Positions 2,882 through 56,771 of a stretch of 64,000 bases of DNA are shown in pieces. Under the pieces are notes generated by a model that saw only the letters and a program-made list of their open reading frames with translations, was not told the DNA's origin and ran no database searches. Numbering within the stretch: the stretch's first letter is position 1; every line of letters begins with the position of its first letter. A program made the translations under genes and the position numbers. This DNA is from Alphaproteobacteria bacterium (lineage in GTDB: Bacteria; Pseudomonadota; Alphaproteobacteria; Rs-D84), in NCBI GenBank assembly GCA_009784275.1, contig WRCA01000004.1, forward strand, positions 5,748 to 69,747, read 5' to 3'.

Positions 2882-3667
2882 ATGGCAAAAATAATCGCTT
2901 TTGCAAATCAGAAAGGTGGTGTTGGTAAAACAACCACCGCAATTAACATAGGTGCCAGTCTGGCGGCAATAAAACGTCGCGTTTTACTAGTTGATTTGGA
3001 CCCGCAAGGAAACGCGGGCACAGGCCTTGGGTTTGTTCGCGCATCGCATGCCCAGTCAGTTTATGGTGTGATTATGGGTACGGACAATGTATCGGAAAAT
3101 ATACTCTCGACTGCAATTCCAAATATGCATATTTTACCATCTAGCCCTCAACTGTCCAGTGCAGAGGTAGAGCTTCTTGATATGGAAAACCGCGAATATC
3201 GTTTGCGTGATGCGATTTCTAGAATATCCGATCATTATGATTATATATTGCTGGACTGTCCCCCTGCCCTGGGATTCCTGACTTTGAATGCATTGACTAC
3301 AGCGGACTCGCTTATTGTGCCATTGCAGTGCGAGTTCTTCGCACTGGAAGGAATTCAAGCCTTGATGGGCGCAACAGCAGAGATAAGAAAAAAATGGAAC
3401 ACGAATCTTGAGACTATGGGCATAGTCTTAACCATGTATGATAAAAGATATGGTTTAACGCGTGCGGTCGAAGCGGACGTTCGCGGCACATTTGGGGATA
3501 AAGTCTTTCAAACAGTGATTCCGCGAAATGTCCGGGTTTCCGAAGCCCCCAGCCATGGCAAGCCGGCGCTGTTTTATGATTTTCAGTCAGCCGGCGCCCA
3601 AGCATATTTAAGACTGGCCACAGAAATAGTAAACGCATGCGGTGATAAAGGAGATGCAAATGTCTAA
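2882..3667 (+). CDS. parA: Chromosome partitioning ATPase ParA
   Basis: Deviant Walker A motif KGGVGKTT. Length 261 aa. Followed by parB. Confidence 0.9.
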   Translation: MAKIIAFANQKGGVGKTTTAINIGASLAAIKRRVLLVDLDPQGNAGTGLGFVRASHAQSVYGVIMGTDNVSENILSTAIPNMHILPSSPQLSSAEVELLDMENREYRLRDAISRISDHYDYILLDCPPALGFLTLNALTTADSLIVPLQCEFFALEGIQALMGATAEIRKKWNTNLETMGIVLTMYDKRYGLTRAVEADVRGTFGDKVFQTVIPRNVRVSEAPSHGKPALFYDFQSAGAQAYLRLATEIVNACGDKGDANV

Positions 3668-4532
3668 ATTTGGATTGGGGCGCGGTCTTGCGGATTTAAA
3701 GGCAGAAATGGGCACAATGCCGGAAATTTCCGTGCTGGCTGGTGGCGAGCGCGTAGTAGTGCGGCATATCCCGATTGTTCAGATTGCACCGAATCCAGAT
3801 CAGCCACGCAAAGCGTTTGCAAAGCAAGAACTGGAAGAGCTCGCTAATTCAATACGCGAAAAGGGCGTCTTGCAGCCAATCCTGGTGCGAAATGTAGCGG
3901 GCAGGGCAAATCAGTATGAAATTATTGCGGGCGAGCGTCGCTGGCGCGCCAGTCAAATCGCGGGTTTGGCGGAAATCCCAGCGCTGGTAAAGAGCCTTAC
4001 GAATGAAAATGCGATGGAAATTGCGTTGATAGAAAATGTGCAGCGCGAAAATCTGAACGCAATCGAAGAATCTGCGGCTTATGAAAACTTGATGACCAAA
4101 TGCAGTTATGAAATAGAAGATGTGGCAAAGCTGATTGGAAAGTCAGTCAGTTATCTGCGGAATATCTTGCGTTTATCGGGATTGCCGGAATCTGTAAAGC
4201 AGATGGTGATAGATGGGCGGCTTTCTGCGACGCATGCCAGGACTTTAGCGGTGGCGGAAAATCCAGAAGCCTTGGCAAAGAAGATAATTGCGGGAAACAT
4301 GTCGGTTAAAGATACCGAAGATCTGGTAAAAAATGCAAAAAGAAGCGAAAAAAGCCGGTCTTTTTCGCAAAAACCGCAAAATATGGCGGAAATCCGGGAT
4401 TTAGAGAAAAAAATCAAGAAAAATACCGGCTTTTTAGCTAAAATCAAGGTAAAAAGAAATGGGGCAGGGCATCTGGCGCTTTATTTTGAAAGCCGCGCGG
4501 GACTAGAAAAACTGATAGAGAGAATAAAATGA
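3660..4532 (+). CDS. parB: Chromosome partitioning protein ParB
   Basis: GLGRGL N-terminus. ParB box IIAGERRWRA. HTH region. The ATG at 3660 has an AGGAG 6 nt upstream (the longer ORF starts at 3642). Confidence 0.85.
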   Translation: MSKFGLGRGLADLKAEMGTMPEISVLAGGERVVVRHIPIVQIAPNPDQPRKAFAKQELEELANSIREKGVLQPILVRNVAGRANQYEIIAGERRWRASQIAGLAEIPALVKSLTNENAMEIALIENVQRENLNAIEESAAYENLMTKCSYEIEDVAKLIGKSVSYLRNILRLSGLPESVKQMVIDGRLSATHARTLAVAENPEALAKKIIAGNMSVKDTEDLVKNAKRSEKSRSFSQKPQNMAEIRDLEKKIKKNTGFLAKIKVKRNGAGHLALYFESRAGLEKLIERIK

Positions 4533-5428
4533 AGAAAACAGTCGGAATAATCGGGGCAGGCGCATGGGGAACTGCTTTGGCGGTGGTTGCGGCGCGCGGC
4601 GGAAATCCGGTCCTTTTATGGTGTTCGGATGAGAAAAAGCCAAAAGAAATTAATCAAAGACATTGGAATCCTTCTTTGAATGGAGTTTCTATTTCGCGTG
4701 AAATAATTGCGACCAGTGATATGGCGGATTTGAAGCGGGCGGATATCTGGCTGATTGCAACGCCGACAGAGTTTTTTAGCAAAACTGTTCAAAAAAGCCG
4801 GCCTTTTTGGCAAAAACAGCCTATAATTATTTGCTCCAAGGGTATAGAGCCACAGACGGGAAGATTCTTGTCGGATGTAGTTGCAGATATTATACCGGGG
4901 GCAGGGCGAATGATTGGGGTTTTATCCGGGCCACAGTTTGCGGCAGAGGTTGCGGCTGGGAAGCCTACGGGGTCTACGGTTGCGGGGTCGCGGAAAGTCT
5001 TTGATTCCGCGCGTTGCGCGCTGCCGAGTTTTATTTTGGAAGAATCGAATGATGTTTATGGGGTTCAAATTTGTGGCGCGGGAAAGAACGTTGTTGCGAT
5101 GCTGATGGGATACTTGGATGCCCAGGGCGCGGGTGAGAATGAACGGGCCCTGAAATTGACACTGGCGTGGCAGGAGATTATATCATTTTCCCGGCTTTTT
5201 CGTGCAAAAATGGATACTTTTGGAAAGCTGTGCGGAATAGGGGACTTGTTCTTGTCGGCGACCAGTAAAACCAGTCGAAATTATTCTGCGGGTGTGGCCA
5301 TGGCCACGGGTAAAAAAGTTACCGGAACGGTAGAAGGAATAGCCGCATTGAAATGGATAATATCGACCGCGAAGAAAAATAAATTGCACTTGCCGGTGTT
5401 GGAAAAAGTCTCGAAAGTTTTTAATTAA
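4529..5428 (+). CDS. gpsA: NAD(P)H-dependent glycerol-3-phosphate dehydrogenase
   Basis: N-terminal Rossmann GAGAWGTALA. Length 299 aa. ATGA overlap with parB. Confidence 0.8.
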   Translation: MKKTVGIIGAGAWGTALAVVAARGGNPVLLWCSDEKKPKEINQRHWNPSLNGVSISREIIATSDMADLKRADIWLIATPTEFFSKTVQKSRPFWQKQPIIICSKGIEPQTGRFLSDVVADIIPGAGRMIGVLSGPQFAAEVAAGKPTGSTVAGSRKVFDSARCALPSFILEESNDVYGVQICGAGKNVVAMLMGYLDAQGAGENERALKLTLAWQEIISFSRLFRAKMDTFGKLCGIGDLFLSATSKTSRNYSAGVAMATGKKVTGTVEGIAALKWIISTAKKNKLHLPVLEKVSKVFN

Positions 5429-5439
5429 GTTTGCCATGA

Positions 5440-5457
5440 CCCCCTCTAAAGAGGGGG
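5440..5457. repeat. Palindromic hairpin repeat (CCCCCTCT-AA-AGAGGGGG). Member of a local hairpin family and a likely gpsA terminator.
   Basis: Perfect 8-bp stem seen in the sequence. Related copies at 8454, 8592, 8733 and 56097. Confidence 0.5.
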
Positions 5458-5699
5458 ACAAATCTTATTTTATACTACTAAACGATAAAGCGAATTATTG
5501 GTTAATGACAACCATTTATAGAATAATGTTGGGCGTATGATAGATAGGTAATTATTAAATCATTTAATAATTATAAACAACTATTTATAGAATTACACCA
5601 GGCTTTCTAAAATATATAGAATACAACTATAAAGAGCAAATCATTGTTAATTCTCTCATCGAGCGAAAATAGGCAGGAAATTCTGCGGCAGATACAGAA

Positions 5700-7667
5700 T
5701 TACGGATTAGGATTGCTAGTCAAATACAGGGGTAATCCTGCAGGTGGTATTTTTAAAGGACTTGAATCAAACCTGTAACAAACATTCCTGCTATCACAAA
5801 TCATGCTCCCATCCACCAGAGCGCAATCAGTATAGCTAGAGCAATCTGTGACATTATTAGGAGTATTCGAGCAAGAACTCCCAGCTTTGTAAACTGTTGT
5901 TGTGGCGGCAGGACATGGGTACTTCTTACAATTAGAGCACCAATGTCCAGGGGGACATGATGTCGGATTAGGATGTGTATCATCCATGTATTTCCCGAGG
6001 CCACACGGAATCCAAACCGCATAAAGGGTTGTATTCCCGGTAGGACTGTTGAAAGAAGTTGAAGTATATGGTATAAGCCCGACTCCAGTAGTTCCTGTAG
6101 TTGTAGTTGTGCCCCAATTTGCTAAATCCAATGCAAAATTTGTAAGCGCCATTACTGGTGTTGTTATAGTTTGTATCTGTCGTAATTGGGGGCAGGCAGA
6201 GTTTTTAGTGCATGTTGTACGTATTGAAGTAGATATCGCTGGAGTACCACCATTAGCGTCATAAGAAACATTATATTGCCATCTCGGACGATAAGTATTG
6301 GCAGCATCGACACTATCGCATGCTACTTCGCCTGGTGTTGCTGGGATAGTCGGTGTTCCAGTACCGTCATTATTTGGATACCATGTATTATCACCATTAT
6401 TAGAGAAATTAGTATAAGTAATAGCAGAAATGGATGGCCCCGAAATCTTTCCTTTATGGAAACAAGGTTTCGTTGATGGAAATGGTGTTGCTACATTATT
6501 GTCGAAATTTATAGTTTTCCCCCATTTAGCAAAAAGTAAGGTTACACTAGATCCAGAAGGAAAAGTGTTGCCATTAACGTAATCAATTCCAGTACCATCG
6601 TCTTTTGTATTCCAGCCAATAAAACTATACCCGTTTGGCGCTGTTACTGATGCCGATGCTGGCAGATCATTACATGGAGTAAGGCCGTCAAAATAACATT
6701 GTATAGTTTGTGTAGTGTTGTTTGTGTCATTCCAATTCAATGTAATGGTAGTCTGTGCAGGTAGCCAAGTTGCATAAAGAGTTAAATTAGTACCACCTTG
6801 CGCAAGGGTATGTGCATTTGCACCAGCAGCAAAACAGGGGGTTGCGCCCGCTGCTGATGAACACCATTGATTGAAAGAATAAGTTGTTTTTGAAAATGTA
6901 TTTGCCGCTAAAGTGCAGCTTCCATTATAAGTGCAAGAGTGGGAAGTTGGAGCTGTACCACTCGTATTAGTATTTCCATTGTAAGTTATTGTTATTTGGT
7001 TGGCAGTACAGGTATTGGCCATAGCATTCAAAGTATATCCATTATTACAAGTAGCTATTCGACAAGTAAGGATAGTATTTCCAGAATTCCAAGAGTTTGC
7101 ATTGTAAGTTGTGGCATTTGGTTCAGCGCATGGCGTAGAGCAAGAAGTACTTCCAGTCCCTGAATTTTTCATGTTACTATTGCAAAGACTGCATGTTGTT
7201 GTAGAAATAGGATTTGAGCTGGAGTTAAAAGAACCTTCTGGACACAGGGAACAACTGTTTGAACCATTATAGTAACGACCAGCCGGACAAGTACAACTTG
7301 TTGGGGCAGCTTGACCTCCAGCGCAGCTACAAGTTCCATTAGTTATATAACTTGAGCATGCAGTACATGTATCGCCACCCGTATTATGCCCTGTCCCACT
7401 ACTACTCTGTGTGCGATAGAAATTGGGATTACAAGCGCAGTTATTGCCGTCAAAAAAGGCATTAGTAACGCAAGCAGTGTGACAGCAGCTATTTGTAAAA
7501 TCTAAAAAAGAGTTCGAACAAACCAAGTTTCCTGACGGTGTATTTGAACACATAGGAGGGCTCATCCCTCCGCAACTTGAATGACTAGCACTAAGACAAA
7601 CAGCAATTGCGTCAAAGGATATAAATAAAGATATAAAAAGAAAAAATGTATTTCGATATAAATGCAT
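5700..7667 (-). CDS. Secreted Cys/Thr/Asn/Gly-rich protein with eukaryote-like GCC2/GCC3-type CxxCPxG modules and Listeria-Bacteroides-type repeats (putative adhesin or effector)
   Basis: N-terminal signal peptide. About 60 Cys residues. Motifs such as CTCPAGRYYNGSNSCSLCPEGSF. Repeated modules GYxFxGW...LYAxW (for example GYSFIGWNTKDDG...LLFAKW and TLYAVWIP). Confidence 0.6.
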   Translation of the reverse strand: MHLYRNTFFLFISLFISFDAIAVCLSASHSSCGGMSPPMCSNTPSGNLVCSNSFLDFTNSCCHTACVTNAFFDGNNCACNPNFYRTQSSSGTGHNTGGDTCTACSSYITNGTCSCAGGQAAPTSCTCPAGRYYNGSNSCSLCPEGSFNSSSNPISTTTCSLCNSNMKNSGTGSTSCSTPCAEPNATTYNANSWNSGNTILTCRIATCNNGYTLNAMANTCTANQITITYNGNTNTSGTAPTSHSCTYNGSCTLAANTFSKTTYSFNQWCSSAAGATPCFAAGANAHTLAQGGTNLTLYATWLPAQTTITLNWNDTNNTTQTIQCYFDGLTPCNDLPASASVTAPNGYSFIGWNTKDDGTGIDYVNGNTFPSGSSVTLLFAKWGKTINFDNNVATPFPSTKPCFHKGKISGPSISAITYTNFSNNGDNTWYPNNDGTGTPTIPATPGEVACDSVDAANTYRPRWQYNVSYDANGGTPAISTSIRTTCTKNSACPQLRQIQTITTPVMALTNFALDLANWGTTTTTGTTGVGLIPYTSTSFNSPTGNTTLYAVWIPCGLGKYMDDTHPNPTSCPPGHWCSNCKKYPCPAATTTVYKAGSSCSNTPNNVTDCSSYTDCALVDGSMICDSRNVCYRFDSSPLKIPPAGLPLYLTSNPNP

Positions 7668-7722
7668 AATTTTTTCCTACTTTCAAGGGGCATTCTAAAA
7701 CATAGCTGTAAATAAAATCAAA

Positions 7723-7752
7723 CAAAAAATCCGGCATCTTATTGATGCCGGA
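7723..7752 (-). terminator. rho-independent terminator of the 7780..8295 gene
   Basis: Hairpin atccggcatcaataagatgccggat followed by a T-run on the minus strand. Confidence 0.6.
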
Positions 7753-7779
7753 TAACAAAAGTAAATAATGACATATATA

Positions 7780-8295
7780 TTATTTTGTTGTTTCACATTG
7801 CGTCAGTGCAGACTGTGCATCTGTGACATTTTTACATGCATTGTCGTATTCTATGCACAGATCATACAAATTGCTCAAAGTTTTATTATTTGAAGGCAAC
7901 GGATTTCCAAATTGTTTTCTAAAATCGTCTATAACTAAAACAAAGGTTTTGGTACTATCTTGAAGATTTTTAGGAACAGTGTTTGCTTGGTTATTAAAGT
8001 GGTTAAAATTATTCCAAAACAATGGGCCAACATTATCAGGATTTGTTAATGCTGGTTCAATCGCTGCGCGAACATTATTTCCAACAGACGTTTCTTTTGC
8101 TTGTGCGCCTTTCAAATCTTCTATTTTTGCATCACAAGTTTTTGGCTTCACGCAGGAAATAAACATAATTCCAGCAGCGGTCACCAAAAAGAATCCTTTT
8201 GTAAGGCCTTTACCAAGCTTCGTGTTCGCCAGCCAGTTAACACCCAGCCAGTTTGTTTTTTCAGTTTTATTTTGTCTATTAAACAACTTTCTCAT
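7780..8295 (-). CDS. Hypothetical membrane-anchored (single TM) exported protein, 171 aa, 4 Cys
   Basis: N-terminal TM helix (FFLVTAAGIMFISCV). No recognisable family. Lies inside the repeat-flanked island. Confidence 0.45.
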   Translation of the reverse strand: MRKLFNRQNKTEKTNWLGVNWLANTKLGKGLTKGFFLVTAAGIMFISCVKPKTCDAKIEDLKGAQAKETSVGNNVRAAIEPALTNPDNVGPLFWNNFNHFNNQANTVPKNLQDSTKTFVLVIDDFRKQFGNPLPSNNKTLSNLYDLCIEYDNACKNVTDAQSALTQCETTK

Positions 8296-8453
8296 AGCTC
8301 GCCTCCTTTTATTGGCTTTATTGGTGTAGGGTTAGTGATTCGTTATGATTCGCTTCCTACTTTTTGTTTACATATAAATTATAGTTGATAAAACTCATTT
8401 GTCAAGAAGATTGACAAAAAATATTTTATGGGTTGGTTTTGGGATTCTTCCTG

Positions 8454-8471
8454 TCCCTCTTGTTAAAGAGG
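8454..8471. repeat. Hairpin repeat CCCTCTT-GTTA-AAGAGGG
   Basis: Same hairpin family as 5440 and 8592. Confidence 0.45.
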
Positions 8472-8591
8472 GGAAGGGTTGGCTTGCGAGCTTGGCGAGC
8501 AAAGCAACCCTGGGGAGATTATTGTCTCGCGCATTAAAAGATAATCCCCCAAGAATCTGTAAAGCTCGCCATGTTCGCTAACAGATTCCAT

Positions 8592-8609
8592 CCCCCTTTA
8601 ACAAGGGGG
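8592..8609. repeat. Hairpin repeat CCCCCTT-TAAC-AAGGGGG. A partial second copy TTTTTAACAAGGGGGGCAC lies at 8741-8759.
   Basis: Seen in the sequence. The two copies share TTTAACAAGGGGGG. Confidence 0.45.
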
Positions 8610-8968
8610 GACTAGTCATATTAGGTGAATTAATATAATGTAACAATTATATATAGAATACAGTGTGAGAATATAAGGAATTTATGTTGCTGGACAACCA
8701 TAAAGAGATTTTTGTATTCAAAACAATAATCTCCCCAGTTTTTTAACAAGGGGGGCACTTGATTCCCTTTAATAAAAAATCGCATTAAGGGAATTAATTA
8801 TAATTATCAACTATAGATAGAATATTGTTTTGGGCGGATAGGTTTTTATTCACACAACTTATGGTTGGGTTTTATTAAGTCGTGCAACTATAATTAGATG
8901 ATTTGTTATTTTGTATATAGGCGAATAATTGTATTAACTCAATTATAGTTAGATACGACGATTGAAAA

Positions 8969-9640
8969 TTAAACATTTTTTGATAATGGTGGGCGGGGGC
9001 CGGTTATTCTTTCCCCCATTTTCTTACGGATGTTTTTTATCTCCACAATAAACCCATCCCCGGTTTTAGATGGGAACAGCTCATAATTAAACTTATATTT
9101 TCTTCGCGCAGTTGCGATTTCTTGGTTTACATTTACGCCCTTCAGCAAGTATGCCGATGTGGCGCTGATTCGTCCCACTGAACTGACCCCGGATTTTTTG
9201 CTCAAGTTCTTTTCATACACCCAGATATAATCGAGGATTTTTATCAGCGGCGCAAACGCCCGCGCAGTAAAAACTATATTCTGGGGCAGGGTAGATGTCG
9301 CAAGGAAGTTTTCCACTCTGTCATTTACTACTGTCAAATTCGGCAGGTTCAGCTGCTTTTTTAATTCTTCCAAGAATTTTGTTTTCTTTCCTATCGATTC
9401 TATGCATATCACATCCCAGCCCATAATCGCCAGCACCACCGCCGGAAAGCCCGCCCCGCTGCCCAAATCGATAATCGTAACCCTGGGAAGGTATTCCGCC
9501 AGCTGTGTTGAATCATCTATATGTCTATGTTGGATGTCGTTCAAGGTGCTGGGCGCGACCAAGTTTGCCCTGGTTTGCCAGTCGCGCAAAATTTCCACGT
9601 ATTTTTCAAATTTGTCTTGCAGTTCCGGTGAGTATTTCAT
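8969..9640 (-). CDS. rsmG: 16S rRNA (guanine527-N7)-methyltransferase RsmG/GidB
   Basis: SAM-binding motif DLGSGAGFP. Length 223 aa. Confidence 0.85.
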   Translation of the reverse strand: MKYSPELQDKFEKYVEILRDWQTRANLVAPSTLNDIQHRHIDDSTQLAEYLPRVTIIDLGSGAGFPAVVLAIMGWDVICIESIGKKTKFLEELKKQLNLPNLTVVNDRVENFLATSTLPQNIVFTARAFAPLIKILDYIWVYEKNLSKKSGVSSVGRISATSAYLLKGVNVNQEIATARRKYKFNYELFPSKTGDGFIVEIKNIRKKMGERITGPRPPLSKNV

Positions 9641-9654
9641 AAAGTAATTATACT

Positions 9655-11292
9655 ATGAAAACATCCCAAAACAATAAATATTCGACGATTGCAAGCGCCG
9701 CTTTGATGGTTGGCGGGCTGGTTGTGTTGGGCGTTGTTGGCTGGGGGCTTCTGCGTCCTTCCAAGTCCACGGATAATTTTAAATATCCCGAAACGAAGTT
9801 CGGCGCTTATCTGGCGACCCGTCATGCAATTTGGGTTGATGATTTCGAATCTGTAATGAAGTTTACCGAAACCTTCAAGGACTCTGATATTGCATCGGTA
9901 AAGATGGATGCTGCGATGGGACGCTTTCTGGCAGGCAATGTTGATGGCACGGCAAGAATTCTGGCGGGCGAAAAGGATATGCTGGCGCGCGCGGCGTATA
10001 CTGCTTATTTACTAACGCAAGATGACTGGAAGGGAATTTATAAAATGTATTCCGCGGATAAGTCCCAGATAATGTCGCCACTTCGAATATGGTCGGCGGT
10101 TGCAACTGGGAAAGAATCCGAAGCGATTAAATTTATAGACTCCTTGAATCTTACAGAAGGATGGAAGCTGTTTGCAAAGGGCATGGTTTACGCCGAGACG
10201 AATCGGCCCGATAAAGCAAAGGCGGCCTTTGATAAAGTGCCTTTGGATTTCATCAACCTTAATGACTATTTATATCTGCAAGCGTTTTATAAAAAACATG
10301 GATTTGATGAAGCTGCGGAAGAATTACGCTCTGATTTTGCCAGCACCCCCGGTGGAGCGTTTATAAACAATTTAGAATTTGATACGAACAAGGATTATTC
10401 CGGATATAAAAGAGCGTTGGGATTTGGATTAATTCAAAATGTTTCGCATACTCCTGCGATGTCTTACTCGAATGCTGCGCTGGTATTGTTAAGATTGGCG
10501 CAGTCTGCGATTGGTACGGGAGACGATGCGATTAATTATTATCTGGGGTCGTTCTTTTATAATGTTGAATCGCCAGTTTACACGGAGTATTTCGAGAAGA
10601 TAAAAAAGGATAGTCCTTATTACCTCTTCGTGATGCTGAAAAATGCCGAAAAGGCCGGTAATTTTAAGAAAATGAAATCCGGGTTGCAGGCCGCATTAAA
10701 GAAAAATCCCACTTTTATGCCGGCTTTGACAAAGCTGGTTGCGATAAATCTGCAAAAGGGCCGGGAAAATGACGCGCTTAAGATCGTAAATAACGCATTA
10801 AAACAGGAAGAACTTTCGGATAGTATAAAGTCTTATTTGCTACGGCAGCGCGCGCGGATTTATGTTCAAAAGGGAAAATTGGATCGTGCCGAAGATGATA
10901 TTTTAAAAGCTGGCGATTTAACGCCGACTAATCCAGATGTCTTGCTGGACACTGCAAAAATCTGGGTCGCGAAAAAAGAAAATCTTGATCAGGCGTATTT
11001 ATATACAACGGCGGTAATAAAACAATCTATATCTGATGTGGATGCTTGGAATACTTTGGCAATGATTGTTTGGGCAAAAGAAGGGCCAGAAGAAGCATCG
11101 GAAATACTGGAACGAGTTGGTCGGGTGGCGAGCGAAAATTCATCACTGTTCCAGCATCTGGGGGATGTGCGTGTAGAGCTGGGGAATAAAAAAGGTGCAC
11201 GTGATGCGTATGAGCGCGCATTAGAGTTTTCCGGCGATGGGCTGTCTTGTGGCGAAGAATGCCTGCGAAAGAAAATAAAGCGCTTAAAATAA
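9655..11292 (+). CDS. TPR-repeat protein with N-terminal TM anchor
   Basis: N-terminal TM helix. Multiple TPR-like A/L/Y-rich repeats. Length 545 aa. Confidence 0.5.
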   Translation: MKTSQNNKYSTIASAALMVGGLVVLGVVGWGLLRPSKSTDNFKYPETKFGAYLATRHAIWVDDFESVMKFTETFKDSDIASVKMDAAMGRFLAGNVDGTARILAGEKDMLARAAYTAYLLTQDDWKGIYKMYSADKSQIMSPLRIWSAVATGKESEAIKFIDSLNLTEGWKLFAKGMVYAETNRPDKAKAAFDKVPLDFINLNDYLYLQAFYKKHGFDEAAEELRSDFASTPGGAFINNLEFDTNKDYSGYKRALGFGLIQNVSHTPAMSYSNAALVLLRLAQSAIGTGDDAINYYLGSFFYNVESPVYTEYFEKIKKDSPYYLFVMLKNAEKAGNFKKMKSGLQAALKKNPTFMPALTKLVAINLQKGRENDALKIVNNALKQEELSDSIKSYLLRQRARIYVQKGKLDRAEDDILKAGDLTPTNPDVLLDTAKIWVAKKENLDQAYLYTTAVIKQSISDVDAWNTLAMIVWAKEGPEEASEILERVGRVASENSSLFQHLGDVRVELGNKKGARDAYERALEFSGDGLSCGEECLRKKIKRLK

Positions 11293-11332: not shown

Positions 11333-11409
11333 GGGTGATTAGCTCAGTTGGTTAGAGCGTTACGTTGACATCGTAAAGGTCGATGGTTCGAGTCCATTAT
11401 CACCCACCA
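11333..11409 (+). tRNA. tRNA-Val (anticodon GAC), CCA encoded
   Basis: Cloverleaf traced by hand. Acceptor GGGUGAU/AUCACCC. Anticodon loop UUGACAU. T-loop GGUUCGAGUCC. Confidence 0.85.
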
Positions 11410-13205: not shown

Positions 13206-13728
13206 TCAACGCCTTGTCTTGATGTCATGTTGTGCGCCGTGCAGCGCAGGTGCTATAAAGCAGCTTGCGGATGATGGCGCAGATTTCATCGTTCTTTTCT
13301 ATAACCCGAATATATCTCCAGAATCGGAATATCAAAAACGACTGATAGAGCAAATCAAGCTCTGTGAATCATTGGATGTAAAATATGTGATTGGTGAATA
13401 CGACCACGACAAATGGCTGTCATGTGTATGTGGGTTGGAAGATGAGCCAGAACGCGGACGCCGCTGTGCGGAATGCTTTAAAATGCGGATTGCTTGGGGG
13501 GTGGATCGGGCGCGCGAACATGGTTATAATACGCTGGCCACCGTATTTGGTATATCAAAATGGAAAGATCAGAAACAAATTGATGAAGCAGGGGCGCAGA
13601 TATGCGCTAATGCAATACAATATATTCCTGTTAATTGGGATGAATCAATGCGTATTGATGAAAATAAGAAATATGACTTCTATCGTCAAAAATACTGTGG
13701 ATGTGAATTTTCGATGCCAAAAAAATAA
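13192..13728 (+). CDS. queH: Epoxyqueuosine reductase QueH (DUF208)
   Basis: CCAPCS and CxxC...CGCE cysteine motifs typical of QueH. Length 178 aa. Overlaps the metG end. Confidence 0.7.
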   Translation: MLESNQRLVLMSCCAPCSAGAIKQLADDGADFIVLFYNPNISPESEYQKRLIEQIKLCESLDVKYVIGEYDHDKWLSCVCGLEDEPERGRRCAECFKMRIAWGVDRAREHGYNTLATVFGISKWKDQKQIDEAGAQICANAIQYIPVNWDESMRIDENKKYDFYRQKYCGCEFSMPKK

Positions 13729-13745
13729 AACCGCATTTGCGGTTT
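13729..13745. terminator. Bidirectional terminator hairpin aaccgcatttgcggttt
   Basis: Perfect hairpin between the convergent queH and the 13749..14057 gene. Confidence 0.55.
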
Positions 13746-13748
13746 GTT

Positions 13749-14057
13749 TCAATGCACAGTTGGATAGTTTCGCTCAACATACTTACTGAAATTGTAAGAT
13801 GCTTCTTGTCTTTTATACTCTTTCCAGCGCGCCATTTCCAGAGATTTTGACATTGGCGATCTTGGGCCATAGGACTCCATGGTGATATACAGCTGCTGAT
13901 AAATCGGATCATTATTGAAACGATATTCATGCTCTTGTTTAATTTTTTCAAATTCTTGCCGATTTGCTTCAAGTTTACGTCCGATGAACTTAACTGCACA
14001 AAGAATTATAATAGCTGCTACCGTCAAACCACTACAAGTTCTTAAAAATTGTTTCAT
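13749..14057 (-). CDS. Hypothetical small membrane-anchored protein (102 aa)
   Basis: N-terminal TM helix. Coupled to the upstream 94-aa ORF (3-nt gap). Confidence 0.4.
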   Translation of the reverse strand: MKQFLRTCSGLTVAAIIILCAVKFIGRKLEANRQEFEKIKQEHEYRFNNDPIYQQLYITMESYGPRSPMSKSLEMARWKEYKRQEASYNFSKYVERNYPTVH

Positions 14058-14060
14058 ATC

Positions 14061-14345
14061 TTACGCCTTTTGTTTTTGCTCTACTAATTTAGACTGCAAT
14101 ATGGCCCATATATAGACAGGCAAATCAAAAATGCTTTTAGTGTTTATTTCTTCGCTCTGCAGGCCATTCAGGATGATTTTATAGCCGAAAGTTCTTTTAA
14201 AATGGGGCTTTGTCTCTACTGTTTCTTGAATCGTAAAGCTGCCGCCGTGCCATGCCGCATGGATAGTATCGTCTGAAAGTTTTGATACAACAGTGTTCTT
14301 GTCTTCCGCGCGATTACGCAAATTGAAATAAGTGAAAATGTTCAT
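14061..14345 (-). CDS. Hypothetical protein (94 aa)
   Basis: ORF with coding-like composition, downstream of der and co-oriented with it. Confidence 0.35.
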   Translation of the reverse strand: MNIFTYFNLRNRAEDKNTVVSKLSDDTIHAAWHGGSFTIQETVETKPHFKRTFGYKIILNGLQSEEINTKSIFDLPVYIWAILQSKLVEQKQKA

Positions 14346-14392
14346 TAACAGTCCTTTGTAAGACTGTCAGTGTAACACATTGCAGATGTTTG

Positions 14393-15730
14393 TCAAGAGT
14401 TCGCATCGTATGGATTTTCAGATTTTCTATATTCGATAAAAATCGGCAATTGTTCCCAATCCAATGCTTTTGCCAAACCTTTACGCAGGTATCTGGTATA
14501 AGATTCAGGCATATCCGTAGCACCGCCGACATGAATCGCGATCTTTATAGGATTGGTAGAGACTTGCGATGCGAATTTTACTTTCATGGGACGTTTCAAG
14601 CGCGACATTGGTGGGTGGCGCGCTTCCATTAGTTTTTCTATCGTGCGGTTAATTAAACTTGTCGGTTTACGGTCAGCCGATTTATCAATCAATTCGAATG
14701 TCCGCTTCATTAGGTTTTTCACCCCGGTTCCGGTTTCTGCGGAAATAGGCAAAATTAGCGGCTTGATAATTTGATGGAAAGAATTTTTAAACTGGTGCTT
14801 TAACTTCAACAGCTTGTCTTCACGTTCTTCCAATGGCACCAGGTCCCATTTGTTCAATGCCACCGCCAGAATCTTTCCGGCATCGTAAATTCGCGCGGCA
14901 ATTCCCAGTGCTTGATTTTCGATATTTTTTGTTGCGTCCACCACCAAAACAACCGCATCGGTTTTTTCCAGCGCGTCCAATGATTTTAACGCGGATAAAG
15001 TTTCCAGTCCATCTGTTATATTAGCCTTGCGCCGCAACCCCGCGGTGTCTGATATTACAATATTACGCCCCAGATATTTTGCGCGGACTTCGATAGTGTC
15101 GCGGGTTATCCCAGGTTCGTCCCGAACAATTACCCTTTCTGCGCCGAGTATTTTATTTACTAATGTCGATTTGCCTACATTAGGCTGACCGAGAATTGCA
15201 ATTCTTAATCGTGATTCAGTAACCGTTGGTTTGTGATTGGTAATCGGCAATGCTTTCATAAAATCATAAATTTTTTCAAAACCGGTTTTATGTTCCGCGC
15301 TGATAGGGAAAGCTTCGCCAAAGCCCAATTTATAAAAATCATTCAGGTCATGCAGGCGTTTTTCTGATTCCGCTTTATTCGCCAGCAGCAAGATTTTCGT
15401 TTTTCTCGTTTTGCGCACTGTTTTCGCCCATTCTAAATCTTCCGCCGTTACCCCGGCACGACCATCGACCACAAACAAAATAGCATCTGCGGATTTTATT
15501 GCGTTCAATGCAAACTCCGTGGATTGCTTTTCAATCGCGCTTCCTTTGGCCTCCAGCCCTGCGGTATCCATCAGCTCGAATTCCAAATCCCCCAGCTGCG
15601 CCGTGCCGGATAATACATCGCGCGTAACACCTGGGCGGTCATGCACCAGTGCGCTGCGCGAGTGAGTCAGCGCATTAAACAACGTAGATTTGCCTGTATT
15701 TGGGCGGCCTGCGATTGCGATTTTTAACAT
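14393..15730 (-). CDS. der: Ribosome biogenesis GTPase Der (EngA)
   Basis: Two GTPase domains (GRPNTGKST and GQPNVGKST). KH-like C-terminus. Confidence 0.9.
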   Translation of the reverse strand: MLKIAIAGRPNTGKSTLFNALTHSRSALVHDRPGVTRDVLSGTAQLGDLEFELMDTAGLEAKGSAIEKQSTEFALNAIKSADAILFVVDGRAGVTAEDLEWAKTVRKTRKTKILLLANKAESEKRLHDLNDFYKLGFGEAFPISAEHKTGFEKIYDFMKALPITNHKPTVTESRLRIAILGQPNVGKSTLVNKILGAERVIVRDEPGITRDTIEVRAKYLGRNIVISDTAGLRRKANITDGLETLSALKSLDALEKTDAVVLVVDATKNIENQALGIAARIYDAGKILAVALNKWDLVPLEEREDKLLKLKHQFKNSFHQIIKPLILPISAETGTGVKNLMKRTFELIDKSADRKPTSLINRTIEKLMEARHPPMSRLKRPMKVKFASQVSTNPIKIAIHVGGATDMPESYTRYLRKGLAKALDWEQLPIFIEYRKSENPYDANS

Positions 15731-15734
15731 AAGA

Positions 15735-15904
15735 GCCCCTTTTCGTAATCAAACACAATCAGATTTTGATAGATTTTGGTGGAAATTTTTATGAAATTTT
15801 ATAGGGTTTATAGACATAAATACTATAAAATTTAATAAAAATTTACCCAAAAGACGCAAAATATGATTACCACCTATTTGCCCCGTTTGATTACGAAAAG
15901 GGGC
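15735..15904. repeat. 170-bp AT-rich element bounded by a perfect 20-bp inverted repeat (gccccttttcgtaatcaaac / gtttgattacgaaaaggggc)
   Basis: Inverted repeats at 15735-15754 and 15885-15904, seen in the sequence. Internal 11-bp inverted repeat gaaattttatag/ctataaaattt. Sits in the divergent der / membrane-protein intergenic region. Confidence 0.5.
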
Positions 15905-15972
15905 GCGATTTCCTATTGAACTTTTCTTATTTTGTCTTTATTATAACCATAAGAAGACAGGAAGGCAAAAAA

Positions 15973-16569
15973 ATGATTAAGAAATTCAAAAAATGGCTGC
16001 AGCATATATTTTACATTCTGACCCAGCCGAAACAGTTCTTTTCTAAAATCGTCGCTGATGGAAATTTGGAAGAATCCATGTTAAAGGCTTTTATGTATGG
16101 TTTGTTGGGTGGCGTGCTGGTTCTGGCCTTGCAATTGATTGGTGGCGCGGCAGTAACTTTTGCGGCGGTTTTCTCGAAGTTGGTAATTATACCTGTACTG
16201 GCAGTGGCATTGTTGTTCGTAATGGCGGGGCTGATGATGATGGTGTCCGAAATAACTGGCGGCGATCGAGACTGGGAAATTGCGGTCAAGGGACTGGCCA
16301 GCGTATTTTTTATCTATCCCGTGATTCTGGTTTTGAACTCATTGGCATTTAATTGCACTTCTTTGTGGATAGTGAGTTTGTTGGTCGACGGCTATGTTCT
16401 GTTCCTGCTTTATAATATCGGCGTTTATTGCATGAAGGGCAACAAGACCAAAGTTGGCCTGGTGATCGCTGCATTTGCGATATTTGCAATAACGGTTTAT
16501 ATAACTGATTACAGATATGGCTGGTTTATGCTGAAAAATACCGGCGCGACGCTTAAGTGCCTGGTTTAA
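15973..16569 (+). CDS. Polytopic membrane protein (Yip1-like?), 198 aa
   Basis: ATG at 15973 with an AGGAAGG RBS. About 5 predicted TM helices. Confidence 0.4.
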   Translation: MIKKFKKWLQHIFYILTQPKQFFSKIVADGNLEESMLKAFMYGLLGGVLVLALQLIGGAAVTFAAVFSKLVIIPVLAVALLFVMAGLMMMVSEITGGDRDWEIAVKGLASVFFIYPVILVLNSLAFNCTSLWIVSLLVDGYVLFLLYNIGVYCMKGNKTKVGLVIAAFAIFAITVYITDYRYGWFMLKNTGATLKCLV

Positions 16570-36796: not shown

Positions 36797-36826
36797 AAAA
36801 CGCCCCAATGGGGCGTTTTTTATTTC
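36797..36826. terminator. Bidirectional terminator aaaaaacgccccaatggggcgtttttt
   Basis: Perfect hairpin with flanking A and T runs. Confidence 0.7.
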
Positions 36827-37200
36827 TTTTTAGTTTTTGTTTCTTTTCCTATAAGTTTTTTCAGTTCTTTTTTAGCTTCTTCATGCTTTTCCAGCGCGCG
36901 TTTTTGAACTAATTTCAGCAATTTTGGATTTTTCATTGTTGGAACATTTTCCAAAGTCCACTTTATCCTGTCCAGCGTCGTATATGAAACGAAATCATTG
37001 TTTACGATTTCCGTTAAAACTTCGAAATCCAAACTATAGGATAGATACCGAAGGTCTTGTCTGTTTTCAGTCTGTTTGACATGATCGATAATTTCTTCGG
37101 GAGATTGTTTTTTGAAGAACTTGCTCATCTGTGGCCCAGAAAACAAAGTGGGCACAACTAATGGTTTAGGTTTTTTGAGTGTTTTTTGCGAGACTGCCAT
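36820..37200 (-). CDS. Hypothetical Lys-rich protein (126 aa)
   Basis: ORF. Highly basic termini. Confidence 0.35.
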   Translation of the reverse strand: MAVSQKTLKKPKPLVVPTLFSGPQMSKFFKKQSPEEIIDHVKQTENRQDLRYLSYSLDFEVLTEIVNNDFVSYTTLDRIKWTLENVPTMKNPKLLKLVQKRALEKHEEAKKELKKLIGKETKTKKK

Positions 37201-56084: not shown

Positions 56085-56096
56085 GCCATGCCTTGG

Positions 56097-56140
56097 TTCC
56101 CCTCCTGTGGAGGGGTGGCGCGAAGCGCCGGGGTGGTTTG
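56097..56140. terminator. Tandem hairpins (cccctcctgtggagggg; ggcgcgaagcgcc). Terminator and hairpin-family member.
   Basis: Seen in the sequence. Between the convergent HAD gene and the DUF115-like gene. Confidence 0.5.
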
Positions 56141-56145
56141 TTTAA

Positions 56146-56758
56146 TCACAATTCTATATCAGAAAACATTCCTTTTAAGCCTATGGGGTTTATAGAAATA
56201 ATTTTTGTATTTGGGTAATTTTTACAAGCAAATTCTTTGAATGCATTCCATCCTGTTTTTATTTTATGCACAGAGGCATTAAGAACATCAGGAGATTTGT
56301 TTTCAATTTTTGAGTACCCCACATCAGCACAATCACAACCAACGAGATATATCCGTTTTGGATTTGTCCAAAGAGCAAAAGTCAAAGCTGGGAATGCAAT
56401 ACTGTGCCACCTTGGCATTGGCTGTTCATCTGGGTCTAATGGAAAATCTGTATTAATACCATTAACAATGTAATTATAAGCTTTTGCGGCATCCCGTAAA
56501 TTGTCAGGAATGGCACTTTCGGGATAAATATGGGATATATCGCCCATAAATTTTATACATTTGTTGTCATAGTTAATGAATTCTTTAAAGATAATCAAAC
56601 TTGACTTTATTATATTTTACAGCACCATTTACACCAATATAAACAGCATCTTTCATTGGGGTAAATTTATCCAAACTTGGTCCCGTGGCAATTAAAATAA
56701 TATCCTGCCCTTTATGATGATTGCGAAATTGCGAAAATATTGCAGTAGACTTTGGCAT
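56146..56758 (-). pseudogene. DUF115/MptE-like (Maf/GT42-fold) gene split into a 57-aa ORF and a 150-aa ORF by a +1 frameshift
   Basis: Upstream ORF 56585-56758 (MPKS...DIILIATGPSLDKF...KFDYL*). Downstream ORF 56146-56598 in the +1 frame, with a TTG as its first codon and the motif RIYLVGCDCAD. The two overlap by 14 nt. Confidence 0.45.
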
Positions 56759-56771
56759 AGAATTCTCTCCA

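Follow-up and report, generated by a model that had tools for sequence, protein, structure and literature searches.

A probable lineage-specific surface-protein islet between convergent gpsA and rsmG genes in an uncultured alphaproteobacterium

The window analyzed here (64,000 nt of contig WRCA01000004.1, from an uncultured, probably gut-associated alphaproteobacterium) contains a 3,540-bp interval between the core genes gpsA and rsmG, within which two minus-strand genes encode a large Cys-rich protein and a small, possibly exported protein. We interpret this interval as a lineage-specific accessory islet for surface proteins, which occupies a recombination-permissive gap between the convergent 3′ ends of gpsA and rsmG and is not self-mobile, and we assign this interpretation a probability of about 0.6. 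An earlier note on the same DNA, made from the sequence alone, had described an accessory island carrying only two genes and had proposed that it was horizontally acquired or mobilized by direct repeats at its ends. The two-gene accessory island is borne out by the comparison with relatives and by base composition, but mobilization by the repeats is not supported.

Across positions 2882-11292 of the window, the gene order is parA, parB, gpsA, the two minus-strand open reading frames (ORFs), rsmG and a TPR gene, followed by a tRNA-Val gene at 11333. Because gpsA is read on the plus strand and rsmG on the minus strand, the two genes converge on the interval (Table 1). Its non-coding parts measure 271 bp on the left (5429-5699), 112 bp between the two genes and 673 bp on the right (8296-8968), matching the long flanks of 270 and 670 bp reported before, and the right flank is the biggest non-coding gap of the window. 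The window is 100% identical to one ENA metagenome contig and to one Logan contig, the latter stopping at 8268, inside a 5′ segment that the small gene has in common with a related gene, P0241. Its proteins are also identical to those of an NCBI metagenome-assembled genome labelled ‘Alphaproteobacteria bacterium’. Searching the literature with the run and assembly accessions turned up nothing on the habitat; the samples may be termite-gut metagenomes. The NCBI protein for the large gene (P0001) has 440 aa and an internal Met start; the ENA and Logan calls give the full 655-aa ORF, which begins with a signal-peptide-like N-terminus.

We used GpsA homologues to recover the same neighborhood from ten other lineages. 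The gpsA gene is syntenic in every relative examined, and the surrounding gene order is constant, with OmpA-LptFG-LptD-SurA-RlmN-ParA-ParB-GpsA on one side of the site and RsmG-TPR-MetG-QueH-Der on the other. Five relatives with GpsA identities of 61-66% have an empty site, the gpsA-rsmG spacing varying from a 4-bp overlap to ~150 bp: the two genes are directly convergent in L003 (GpsA 66%), separated by ~150 bp in L011/L012 (65%), by ~140 bp in L014 (65%) and by ~110 bp in L016 (61%), and overlapping in L015 (63%). Three more relatives carry different cargo, namely one Stealth-family gene in L009 (66%), at least 4 kb with Stealth, Imp-YgjV and helix-turn-helix (HTH) genes in L013 (68%; the contig ends before rsmG), and, in L007 (68%), a gene in the opposite orientation for an unrelated repeat protein (521 aa, 9% Cys). 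A homologous two-gene islet, with the same gene order and orientation, is present in L005 (78%). The content of the interval is not conserved across these relatives, and the window holds an insertion relative to the five empty sites.

The Stealth genes of L009 (7940-8980, minus strand) and L013 (1666-2709, minus strand) are of the CR1/CR2, capsule phosphotransferase type, and both lie directly 3′ of gpsA. The gpsA/rsmG site is therefore a hot spot for surface-related cargo, repeatedly receiving cell-surface functions. The protein encoded by the L007 gene (8073-9638, plus strand) is secreted, contains 48 Cys and has three to four internal ~55-aa repeats, and a GCGAGC-rich palindrome of ~80 nt lies between this gene and rsmG (9640-9740). 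In an alignment of RsmG with those of L005, L007, L009, L011 and L014-L016, the proteins of the window, L005 and L007 have a ~17-aa internal insertion and a ~14-aa C-terminal extension (…GERITGPRPPL…) that are absent from the five other relatives. Every member of this RsmG-marked subclade has a Cys-rich secreted protein at the site.

The core DNA on both sides of the islet is 80% identical between the window and L005, whereas alignment inside the islet is limited to short patches. These are the promoter, at 86%; the small gene’s ribosome-binding site and start, at 83%; the terminator with the large gene’s start, at 66%; and 76 nt within the region for the large protein’s C-terminal domain, at 72%. 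The part common to the two large proteins is their last ~100 residues (33% identity), and the small proteins are 26% identical over 70 aa. This pattern suggests that the regulatory and terminal segments have been kept and that the exposed parts have been replaced or are diverging fast.

The base composition of the two genes also departs from that of the window. The GC content at third codon positions (GC3) is 0.273 for the large gene (z = -3.5) and 0.298 for the small gene (z = -3.0), compared to 0.448 ± 0.051 for the 51 other genes, whereas a synonymous-codon likelihood gave a less clear result (z = -1.8 and +2.6 for the two genes). Because relatives have empty sites and GC3 is ~3 standard deviations low, the reading of the interval as an accessory island, horizontally acquired or lineage-specific, is supported, and the different cargo of other relatives agrees with it.

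The transcription signals of the islet are listed in Table 1. The small gene has a GGAGG ribosome-binding site 6 nt before its ATG, and the region around its consensus promoter (8356-8426) is 86% identical to L005 3848-3918, exceeding the identity of the flanking genes (80%). A hairpin equivalent to the terminator between the small and large genes is found in the same intergenic place in L005 (3160-3190) and also in L017, and the large gene has an AGGAAA ribosome-binding site 5 nt before its ATG, as read from the sequence. We propose that the perfect sigma-70 promoter and the strong ribosome-binding site would drive the small lipoprotein-like gene, with transcription ending at the strong intrinsic terminator, and that a second, weaker promoter would drive the 655-aa secreted protein with its Cys-rich ends and InlB-type B repeats.

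The large protein contains 44 Cys (6.7%), with 24 in residues 1-225 and ten in the last 115 residues. A signal-peptide-like hydrophobic N-terminus and a Cys-rich region (1-225) are followed by InlB B-type (Flg_new) repeats at residues ~226-552 and by a C-terminal domain with six conserved Cys at residues ~553-640. The one family match of the protein, to Pfam Flg_new (PF09479, the Listeria-Bacteroides repeat), scores 28.9 bits against a cut-off of 27 and covers two stretches, the best at residues 226-299; the 118 non-self homologues with InlB B repeats all have PF09479, at no more than 41% identity over no more than 50% of the query. InlB B repeats adopt a beta-grasp fold related to mucin-binding domains. 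By analogy with this domain content, the large protein may be an adhesin-like surface protein. The literature treats proteins with Flg_new / InlB B repeats as putative adhesins that gut-associated microbes have gained horizontally and that evolve fast (PMC9723798).

In an exhaustive HMMER search of 1.84 billion representatives, the C-terminal 115 residues matched only five other proteins. These five, the L005 protein and the window protein have the invariant pattern C-x2-G-x12-C-x2-G-x2-C…CP-x-A-x-TT…C-x2-V-x2-S-x-ICD…VCY-x-F. Pfam and NCBIfam gave no match to the Cys-rich parts, to the small protein or to the L005 and L007 proteins, and the six-Cys C-terminal domain is a family undescribed in both databases. 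The large protein had been called a eukaryote-like Cys-rich secreted protein. Its Cys content and signal-peptide-like start fit the second half of this description, but hmmscan of the N- and C-terminal Cys-rich parts detected no EGF, furin-like, TNFR, ephrin-receptor-like or Giardia VSP domain at E ≤ 10; the sole score was a cEGF match (E = 1.1, 9.6 bits versus a cut-off of 26.6), and a sequence search of the PDB gave nothing at E ≤ 1. As no eukaryote-type Cys-rich domain was detected, and the recognized module is the bacterial InlB B repeat, the resemblance to eukaryotic proteins is only an impression at the level of pattern.

The small protein has a charged N-terminal extension, a hydrophobic segment and a lipobox-like MFISC at residues 44-48, consistent with the export suggested previously. 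Lipobox-like sequences read by eye are …FFLVTAAGIMFISC in the window (Cys48, unusually far from the N-terminus), …VVVLAFMASC in L005 and …MFMVTSC in P0241, and the small protein may be a lipoprotein. Its AlphaFold model has a predicted local distance difference test (pLDDT) score of 66 and helices across residues 52-169, which makes a four-helix bundle plausible for the mature protein; Foldseek with this model against the PDB found nothing at E ≤ 0.001, only generic helical bundles. Besides the L005 neighbor, one non-self homologue was found among 5.8 billion clusters, P0241 (37% identity). P0241 lies on short contigs (L018/L019) from the ENA assembly that also contains the window sequence and from the JGI sample that gave L005, and is followed by a LeuC-like gene, not by a Cys-rich gene. 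The 5′ 158 nt of the small gene (window 8159-8310), including the ribosome-binding site, the N-terminal extension and the membrane segment, are 88% identical to P0241; beyond this segment, P0241 looks like the L005 allele (43% over 194 aa). P0241 appears to be a third small-gene allele or a paralogue, with a mosaic structure of the recombination type.

The same module also exists elsewhere. Members of the large-protein family are found at other loci, as P0245 (L017) and P0242 (L022), each after a small gene, and as P0243 (L020/L021), which belongs to the L007 genome and is clustered there with other large secreted proteins; no paralogues were found within the window. Therefore, the module is relocatable over evolutionary time. 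A recombinase never accompanies it at any locus seen, and genes for an integrase, transposase or invertase are missing from the islet and the DNA next to it. The islet has two ORFs of at least 120 aa, neither with a recombinase domain, and the neighboring genes encode ParA, ParB, GpsA, RsmG and the TPR protein. The nearest tRNA gene (Val, 11333-11409) is separated from the islet by rsmG and the TPR gene. No target-site duplication was found for the islet, its DNA has no match in plasmid and phage collections, and the combination of terminal inverted repeats, target-site duplication and multiple copies that marks transposons and miniature inverted-repeat transposable elements was not seen in the 64 kb.

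The module would most likely have been placed at this site, and later remodeled, by ordinary recombination. Conserved stretches that could act as homology arms are the two core genes, the small gene’s promoter and 5′ end, and the large gene’s C-terminal domain. In both proteins, the exposed parts would then have diverged very fast or been replaced, and the direct repeats in the flanks would be by-products or orphan regulatory remnants, not the ends of a transposon or att sites.

We next consider these repeats, which the earlier note had described as ~40-nt imperfect direct repeats bounding the island. The two blocks are found at 5517-5556 and 8814-8850, a few bases off the positions first given, with 30 identities in 44 alignment columns and three gaps. 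They are real, and longer than first described. Extended leftwards, the direct repeat takes in a CCCC…GGGG hairpin, with 86 of 131 columns matched between 5440-5556 and 8733-8850, yielding a repeat of ~117 nt that is 66% identical. The local alignment score between the two flanks is 24, above all 300 dinucleotide shuffles (12.7 ± 1.5, maximum 17), whereas similarity in the reverse orientation is at chance level by the same comparison. Within the repeat is an AT-rich unit, X, accompanied by CCCC…GGGG hairpins. A profile of X finds six copies, all on the plus strand and all within the two flanks, at 5486, 5555, 8620, 8676, 8784 and 8863, and no copy outside them in the 64 kb, so that X is a local, same-strand family; the repeat census covered 64 kb (plus 4 kb) of this genome.

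The best-conserved repeat block, 8839-8930, is 73% identical over 60 nt to L005 1192-1290 by blastn (local score 33; shuffles 10.6 ± 1.2), and its geometry suggests a promoter. The X copies of the left flank are more degenerate. The flanks are also packed with hairpins, as noted before: nine terminator-like hairpins are present versus 2.6 ± 1.7 expected, and the DNA fold of 8440-8625 (186 nt), around a 155-nt palindrome, has a free energy of -39.2 kcal/mol (z = -5.4; none of 200 shuffles equally stable). The palindrome has no second copy in the 64 kb, and no target-site duplication was seen at its ends when the sequence was read by eye. Across the whole window, Rfam at gathering thresholds matched solely tRNAs, located elsewhere, and at E ≤ 1 it gave one chance snoRNA match over the islet. 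Pseudogene remnants in the flanks were considered and rejected: with every protein of the family as query, tblastn gave no hit below E = 1. X does not flank the module at L017, L020 or L022, nor does it accompany the cargo of L007, L009 and L013. Because of this absence, we read the flank repeats as local duplications of an ancestral intergenic block, consisting of a hairpin and an AT-rich promoter-like unit. The X units may be orphan promoter remnants left by cargo turnover instead of mobile-element ends.

Table 1. Positions in the window of the core boundaries, islet genes, transcription signals and flank elements
Feature	Position	Strand	Evidence and remarks
gpsA (NAD(P)H glycerol-3-phosphate dehydrogenase), left core boundary	4529-5428	+	Pfam NAD_Gly3P_dh_N 1.9e-38, NAD_Gly3P_dh_C 1.3e-30
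Perfect palindromic hairpin CCCCCTCTAAAGAGGGGG, just 3′ of gpsA stop; opens left repeat block	5440-5458	.	Aligns with hairpin 8733-8757
X copy L1 (…GAATTATT…CAACCATTTATAGAATAATGTTGGGCG…GATAGGTAATTATT), includes left block of the earlier note	5485-5556	+	nhmmer 5486-5555, E 3e-11, but copy belonged to the training set
X copy L2	5554-5628	+	TTAATA-18-TAGAAT promoter-like geometry, directed into large-gene 3′ end
Large gene, 655 aa	5700-7667	-	ORF
Large-gene promoter-like site TTGATT-18-TAGAAT	7692-7721	-	9/12 matches; putative function
Intrinsic terminator between small and large genes (ATCCGGCATCAATAAGATGCCGGAT then TTTTTG)	7729-7753	-	10-pair stem, 6 GC pairs
Small gene, 171 aa	7780-8295	-	ORF
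Consensus sigma-70 promoter TTGACA-16-TATAAT, 5′ of small gene	8378-8405	-	12/12 matches
Palindromic element, 155 nt	8455-8609	.	46-nt imperfect arms (72% complementary), CCCTC…GAGGG-type hairpin ending each arm
Segment with perfect 16-nt inverted repeat ends (CTGGGGAGATTATTGT / ACAATAATCTCCCCAG, 8510-8525 / 8723-8738)	8510-8738	.	Holds X copy R2; these two 16-nt copies are the sole ones in the window
X copy R2	8620-8690	+	TTAATA-18-TAGAAT; nhmmer E 1.4e-6
Weak partial X copy	8676-8715	+	nhmmer E 0.027
Right repeat block: hairpin CCCCAGTTTTTTAACAAGGGGGG then X copy R3	8733-8850	+	Partner of 5440-5556; nhmmer 8784-8849; includes right block of the earlier note
X copy R4 and conserved block AGGTTTTTATTCAYACAA…CAACTATAATTAGA	8839-8930	+	TTGnnT-18-TATAAT geometry; homologous to L005 1192-1290
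rsmG (16S rRNA m7G527 methyltransferase), right core boundary	8969-9640	-	Pfam GidB E 2.9e-34; alignment with 7 relatives

Several other explanations account for parts of these data. The X units could be functional regulatory DNA, either a rightward promoter battery or binding sites for nucleoid or regulatory proteins, whose role would be to produce antisense or small RNAs, or to keep AT-rich foreign genes silenced or insulated. The geometry of the units (TTAATA-18-TAGAAT or TTGnnT-18-TATAAT), the placement of all six on one strand, the ~70-73% conservation of the R4 block with L005 and a strong hairpin ~130 nt 3′ of the block in L005 are consistent with such a role. However, promoter-like sites are not enriched in the region (18 versus 12.8 ± 3.8 expected), the block (73%) is less conserved than the neighboring genes (80%), Rfam provides no match, and in the window there is neither a plus-strand ORF nor a clear terminator 3′ of the units. 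We regard a regulatory function of the X units as unlikely.

A little less likely again is that the islet is a cassette mobilized via its flanking direct repeats, with the hairpin-plus-X blocks acting as attL/attR-like or Campbell-type sites and a circular intermediate integrating and excising with a recombinase encoded elsewhere. Two flanks that share a significant ~117-nt repeat in the same orientation, the presence of the module at different loci in related genomes and the repeated use of the site by different cargo are what such a cassette would leave behind, and recombination at either copy could explain why the X block is on one side of the genes in the window and on the other in L005. 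The same displacement of the best-conserved block, however, also counts against mobilization by the repeats, and further evidence weighs in the same direction: the missing integrase, transposase and invertase; repeats that are only ~66% identical, present in six copies and without a target-site duplication; the module at L017, L020 and L022, and the cargo at L007, L009 and L013, without surrounding X; and two independent assemblies (ENA and Logan) that are 100% identical, with no variant junction.

We find it improbable, and slightly more so, that the locus is ancestral, vertically inherited and lost in most relatives, with its odd composition arising from fast evolution under diversifying selection. 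The homologous L005 islet does predate the split between the window and L005, and the window, L005 and L007 form a subclade with common RsmG insertions in which each member has a Cys-rich secreted protein at the site. But all five cargo-free lineages, which lie outside this subclade and were sampled across the whole interval, have an empty site, the cargo of L007, L009 and L013 is unrelated, and the low GC3 of both genes is accompanied by a compositional shift that extends to the flanks.

A very improbable extension of these ideas is that the hairpin-plus-X blocks and the segment bounded by the 16-nt repeat are sites of a trans-acting recombination system that moves or flips the two-gene module (lipoprotein plus Cys-rich B-repeat adhesin) among several chromosomal sites in this uncultured gut clade; if true, surface proteins with a new family of six-Cys C-terminal domains would be at the center of a cassette-exchange or phase-variation system not described before. 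Least probable of all is a phase-variation switch in the right flank, in which the 229-nt segment 8510-8738 would invert and turn its promoter-like unit toward or away from the surface-protein genes: the segment has a promoter-like X copy inside it, chance would very rarely produce a perfect 16-nt inverted repeat in 673 nt (~5e-5, our own estimate) and surface adhesin loci are typical targets of invertible promoters (fimS, the Bacteroides invertible promoters), but the gene already has the 12/12 consensus promoter on its own side of the segment, where inversion would not reach it, no invertase gene is nearby, L005 has no such segment yet has kept the promoter, the ENA assembly that spans the segment has the same orientation (the Logan contig stops short at 8268), and the 16-mer belongs to the local GGGGAGATTAT / CCCC hairpin repeat family, which is able to create inverted repeats of this kind.

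Several points weigh against an accessory islet that is remodeled by ordinary recombination. A purely passive islet requires neither the significant direct repeat nor the perfect 16-nt inverted repeat. In the window the conserved X block is to the right of the genes; in L005 it is to their left, between gpsA and the large gene, so that an extra rearrangement or independent insertions must be assumed. Beyond the 64 kb (plus 4 kb) searched, the repeats might be common in the genome, and a recombinase might act on them in trans. Finally, the choice between gain and differential loss relies on parsimony over ten loci and not on a species tree, and the adhesin function is by domain analogy alone, the structure model of the large protein being unusable (pLDDT 33). 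The data show the insertion relative to relatives, the deviant composition, the layout of promoters and terminator, the domains encoded and the confinement of the repeats to this locus within the window; from them we infer an adhesin function, lipoprotein status, recombination as the route of acquisition and non-functional remnants as the nature of the repeats.

Comparison with known systems also places the islet among variable surface-protein loci. Like core-gene islets and replacement islands (capsule, O-antigen and adhesin loci), it has a fixed core position, empty or swapped surface cargo in relatives, a deviant composition and no mobility genes; unlike them, it has only two genes, and its flanks contain decayed direct repeats and palindromes. 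Replacement islands swap via flanking homology, and the homologous exchange proposed for the gpsA-rsmG islet would be of the same kind. With integrase-borne islands that have attL/attR sites it shares same-orientation flank repeats, absence from relatives and AT-richness, but it lacks an integrase and does not sit in a tRNA gene (tRNA-Val is 2.4 kb away), and its repeats are multi-copy, ~66% identical, far longer and more degenerate than att cores. The right flank resembles the invertible promoters of E. coli (fimS) and Bacteroides in having a ~200-nt segment with perfect short inverted repeats and an internal promoter-like site 5′ of surface-protein genes; it differs from them in the absence of a nearby recombinase, in a constitutive-looking consensus promoter outside the segment, in the single orientation seen (ENA assembly) and in the absence of the segment from L005. 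Like InlB B-repeat adhesin-like proteins, the large protein has a Pfam PF09479 match above the gathering score and all its detectable homologues are in this group. In contrast to them, its repeats have a Cys-rich region on their N-terminal side and the conserved six-Cys domain on their C-terminal side, and it has no leucine-rich repeat (LRR), LPXTG, GW or other known anchoring module.

Other features of the window were recorded alongside the islet. A 55-nt, T-tailed double-hairpin element (GTTCCCCTCCTGTGGAGGGGTGG-[variable GC hairpin]-CGGGGTGGTTT; 56092-56146, plus strand) lies right after the stop codon of a HAD-hydrolase gene. It has a single copy in the window, and copies that are 95-98% identical occur in L007, L017 (just after P0245), L020 and L022; GpsA of the genomes with these copies, where recovered (L007), is 68% identical. 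The element appears to be a highly conserved terminator or repetitive extragenic palindromic (REP)-like element of the clade. The islet hairpins were considered as elements of this type and rejected, as a covariance model from six copies scores only 56092-56146 (78 bits) and the best islet hairpin, 5424-5463, has E = 1.4. Between the HAD-hydrolase gene and rmuC, a 150-aa ORF (56146-56598, minus strand) has the lowest GC3 of the window (0.267) and a weak MptE-like match under the Pfam cut-off (E 0.0016); together with 56599-56771 it looks like a second small accessory or decaying patch. A 126-aa lysine-rich ORF (36820-37200, minus strand; GC 0.354, z = -3.1) has no Pfam match and adjoins tRNA-Glu and tRNA-Gln genes. 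A replication origin or partition site near parAB was also considered; because GC skew stays positive from one side of the islet to the other, without changing sign, this was rejected. Further along, the cumulative GC skew climbs to ~13.5 kb and then drops (window ~13500-16000), coinciding with a change in gene orientation (der, minus strand).

The islet reveals no new mechanism and resembles many other variable surface-protein loci. Its locus marks a reproducible hot spot for adhesin-like and Stealth capsule-type genes in a poorly known clade of uncultured Alphaproteobacteria, and it defines a small uncharacterized protein family with Cys-rich ends, InlB B repeats and a six-Cys C-terminal domain, whose partner is usually a small lipoprotein-like gene. 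Both may be of use in annotating the clade’s metagenome-assembled genomes and in studying attachment to hosts or particles and strain-level variation.

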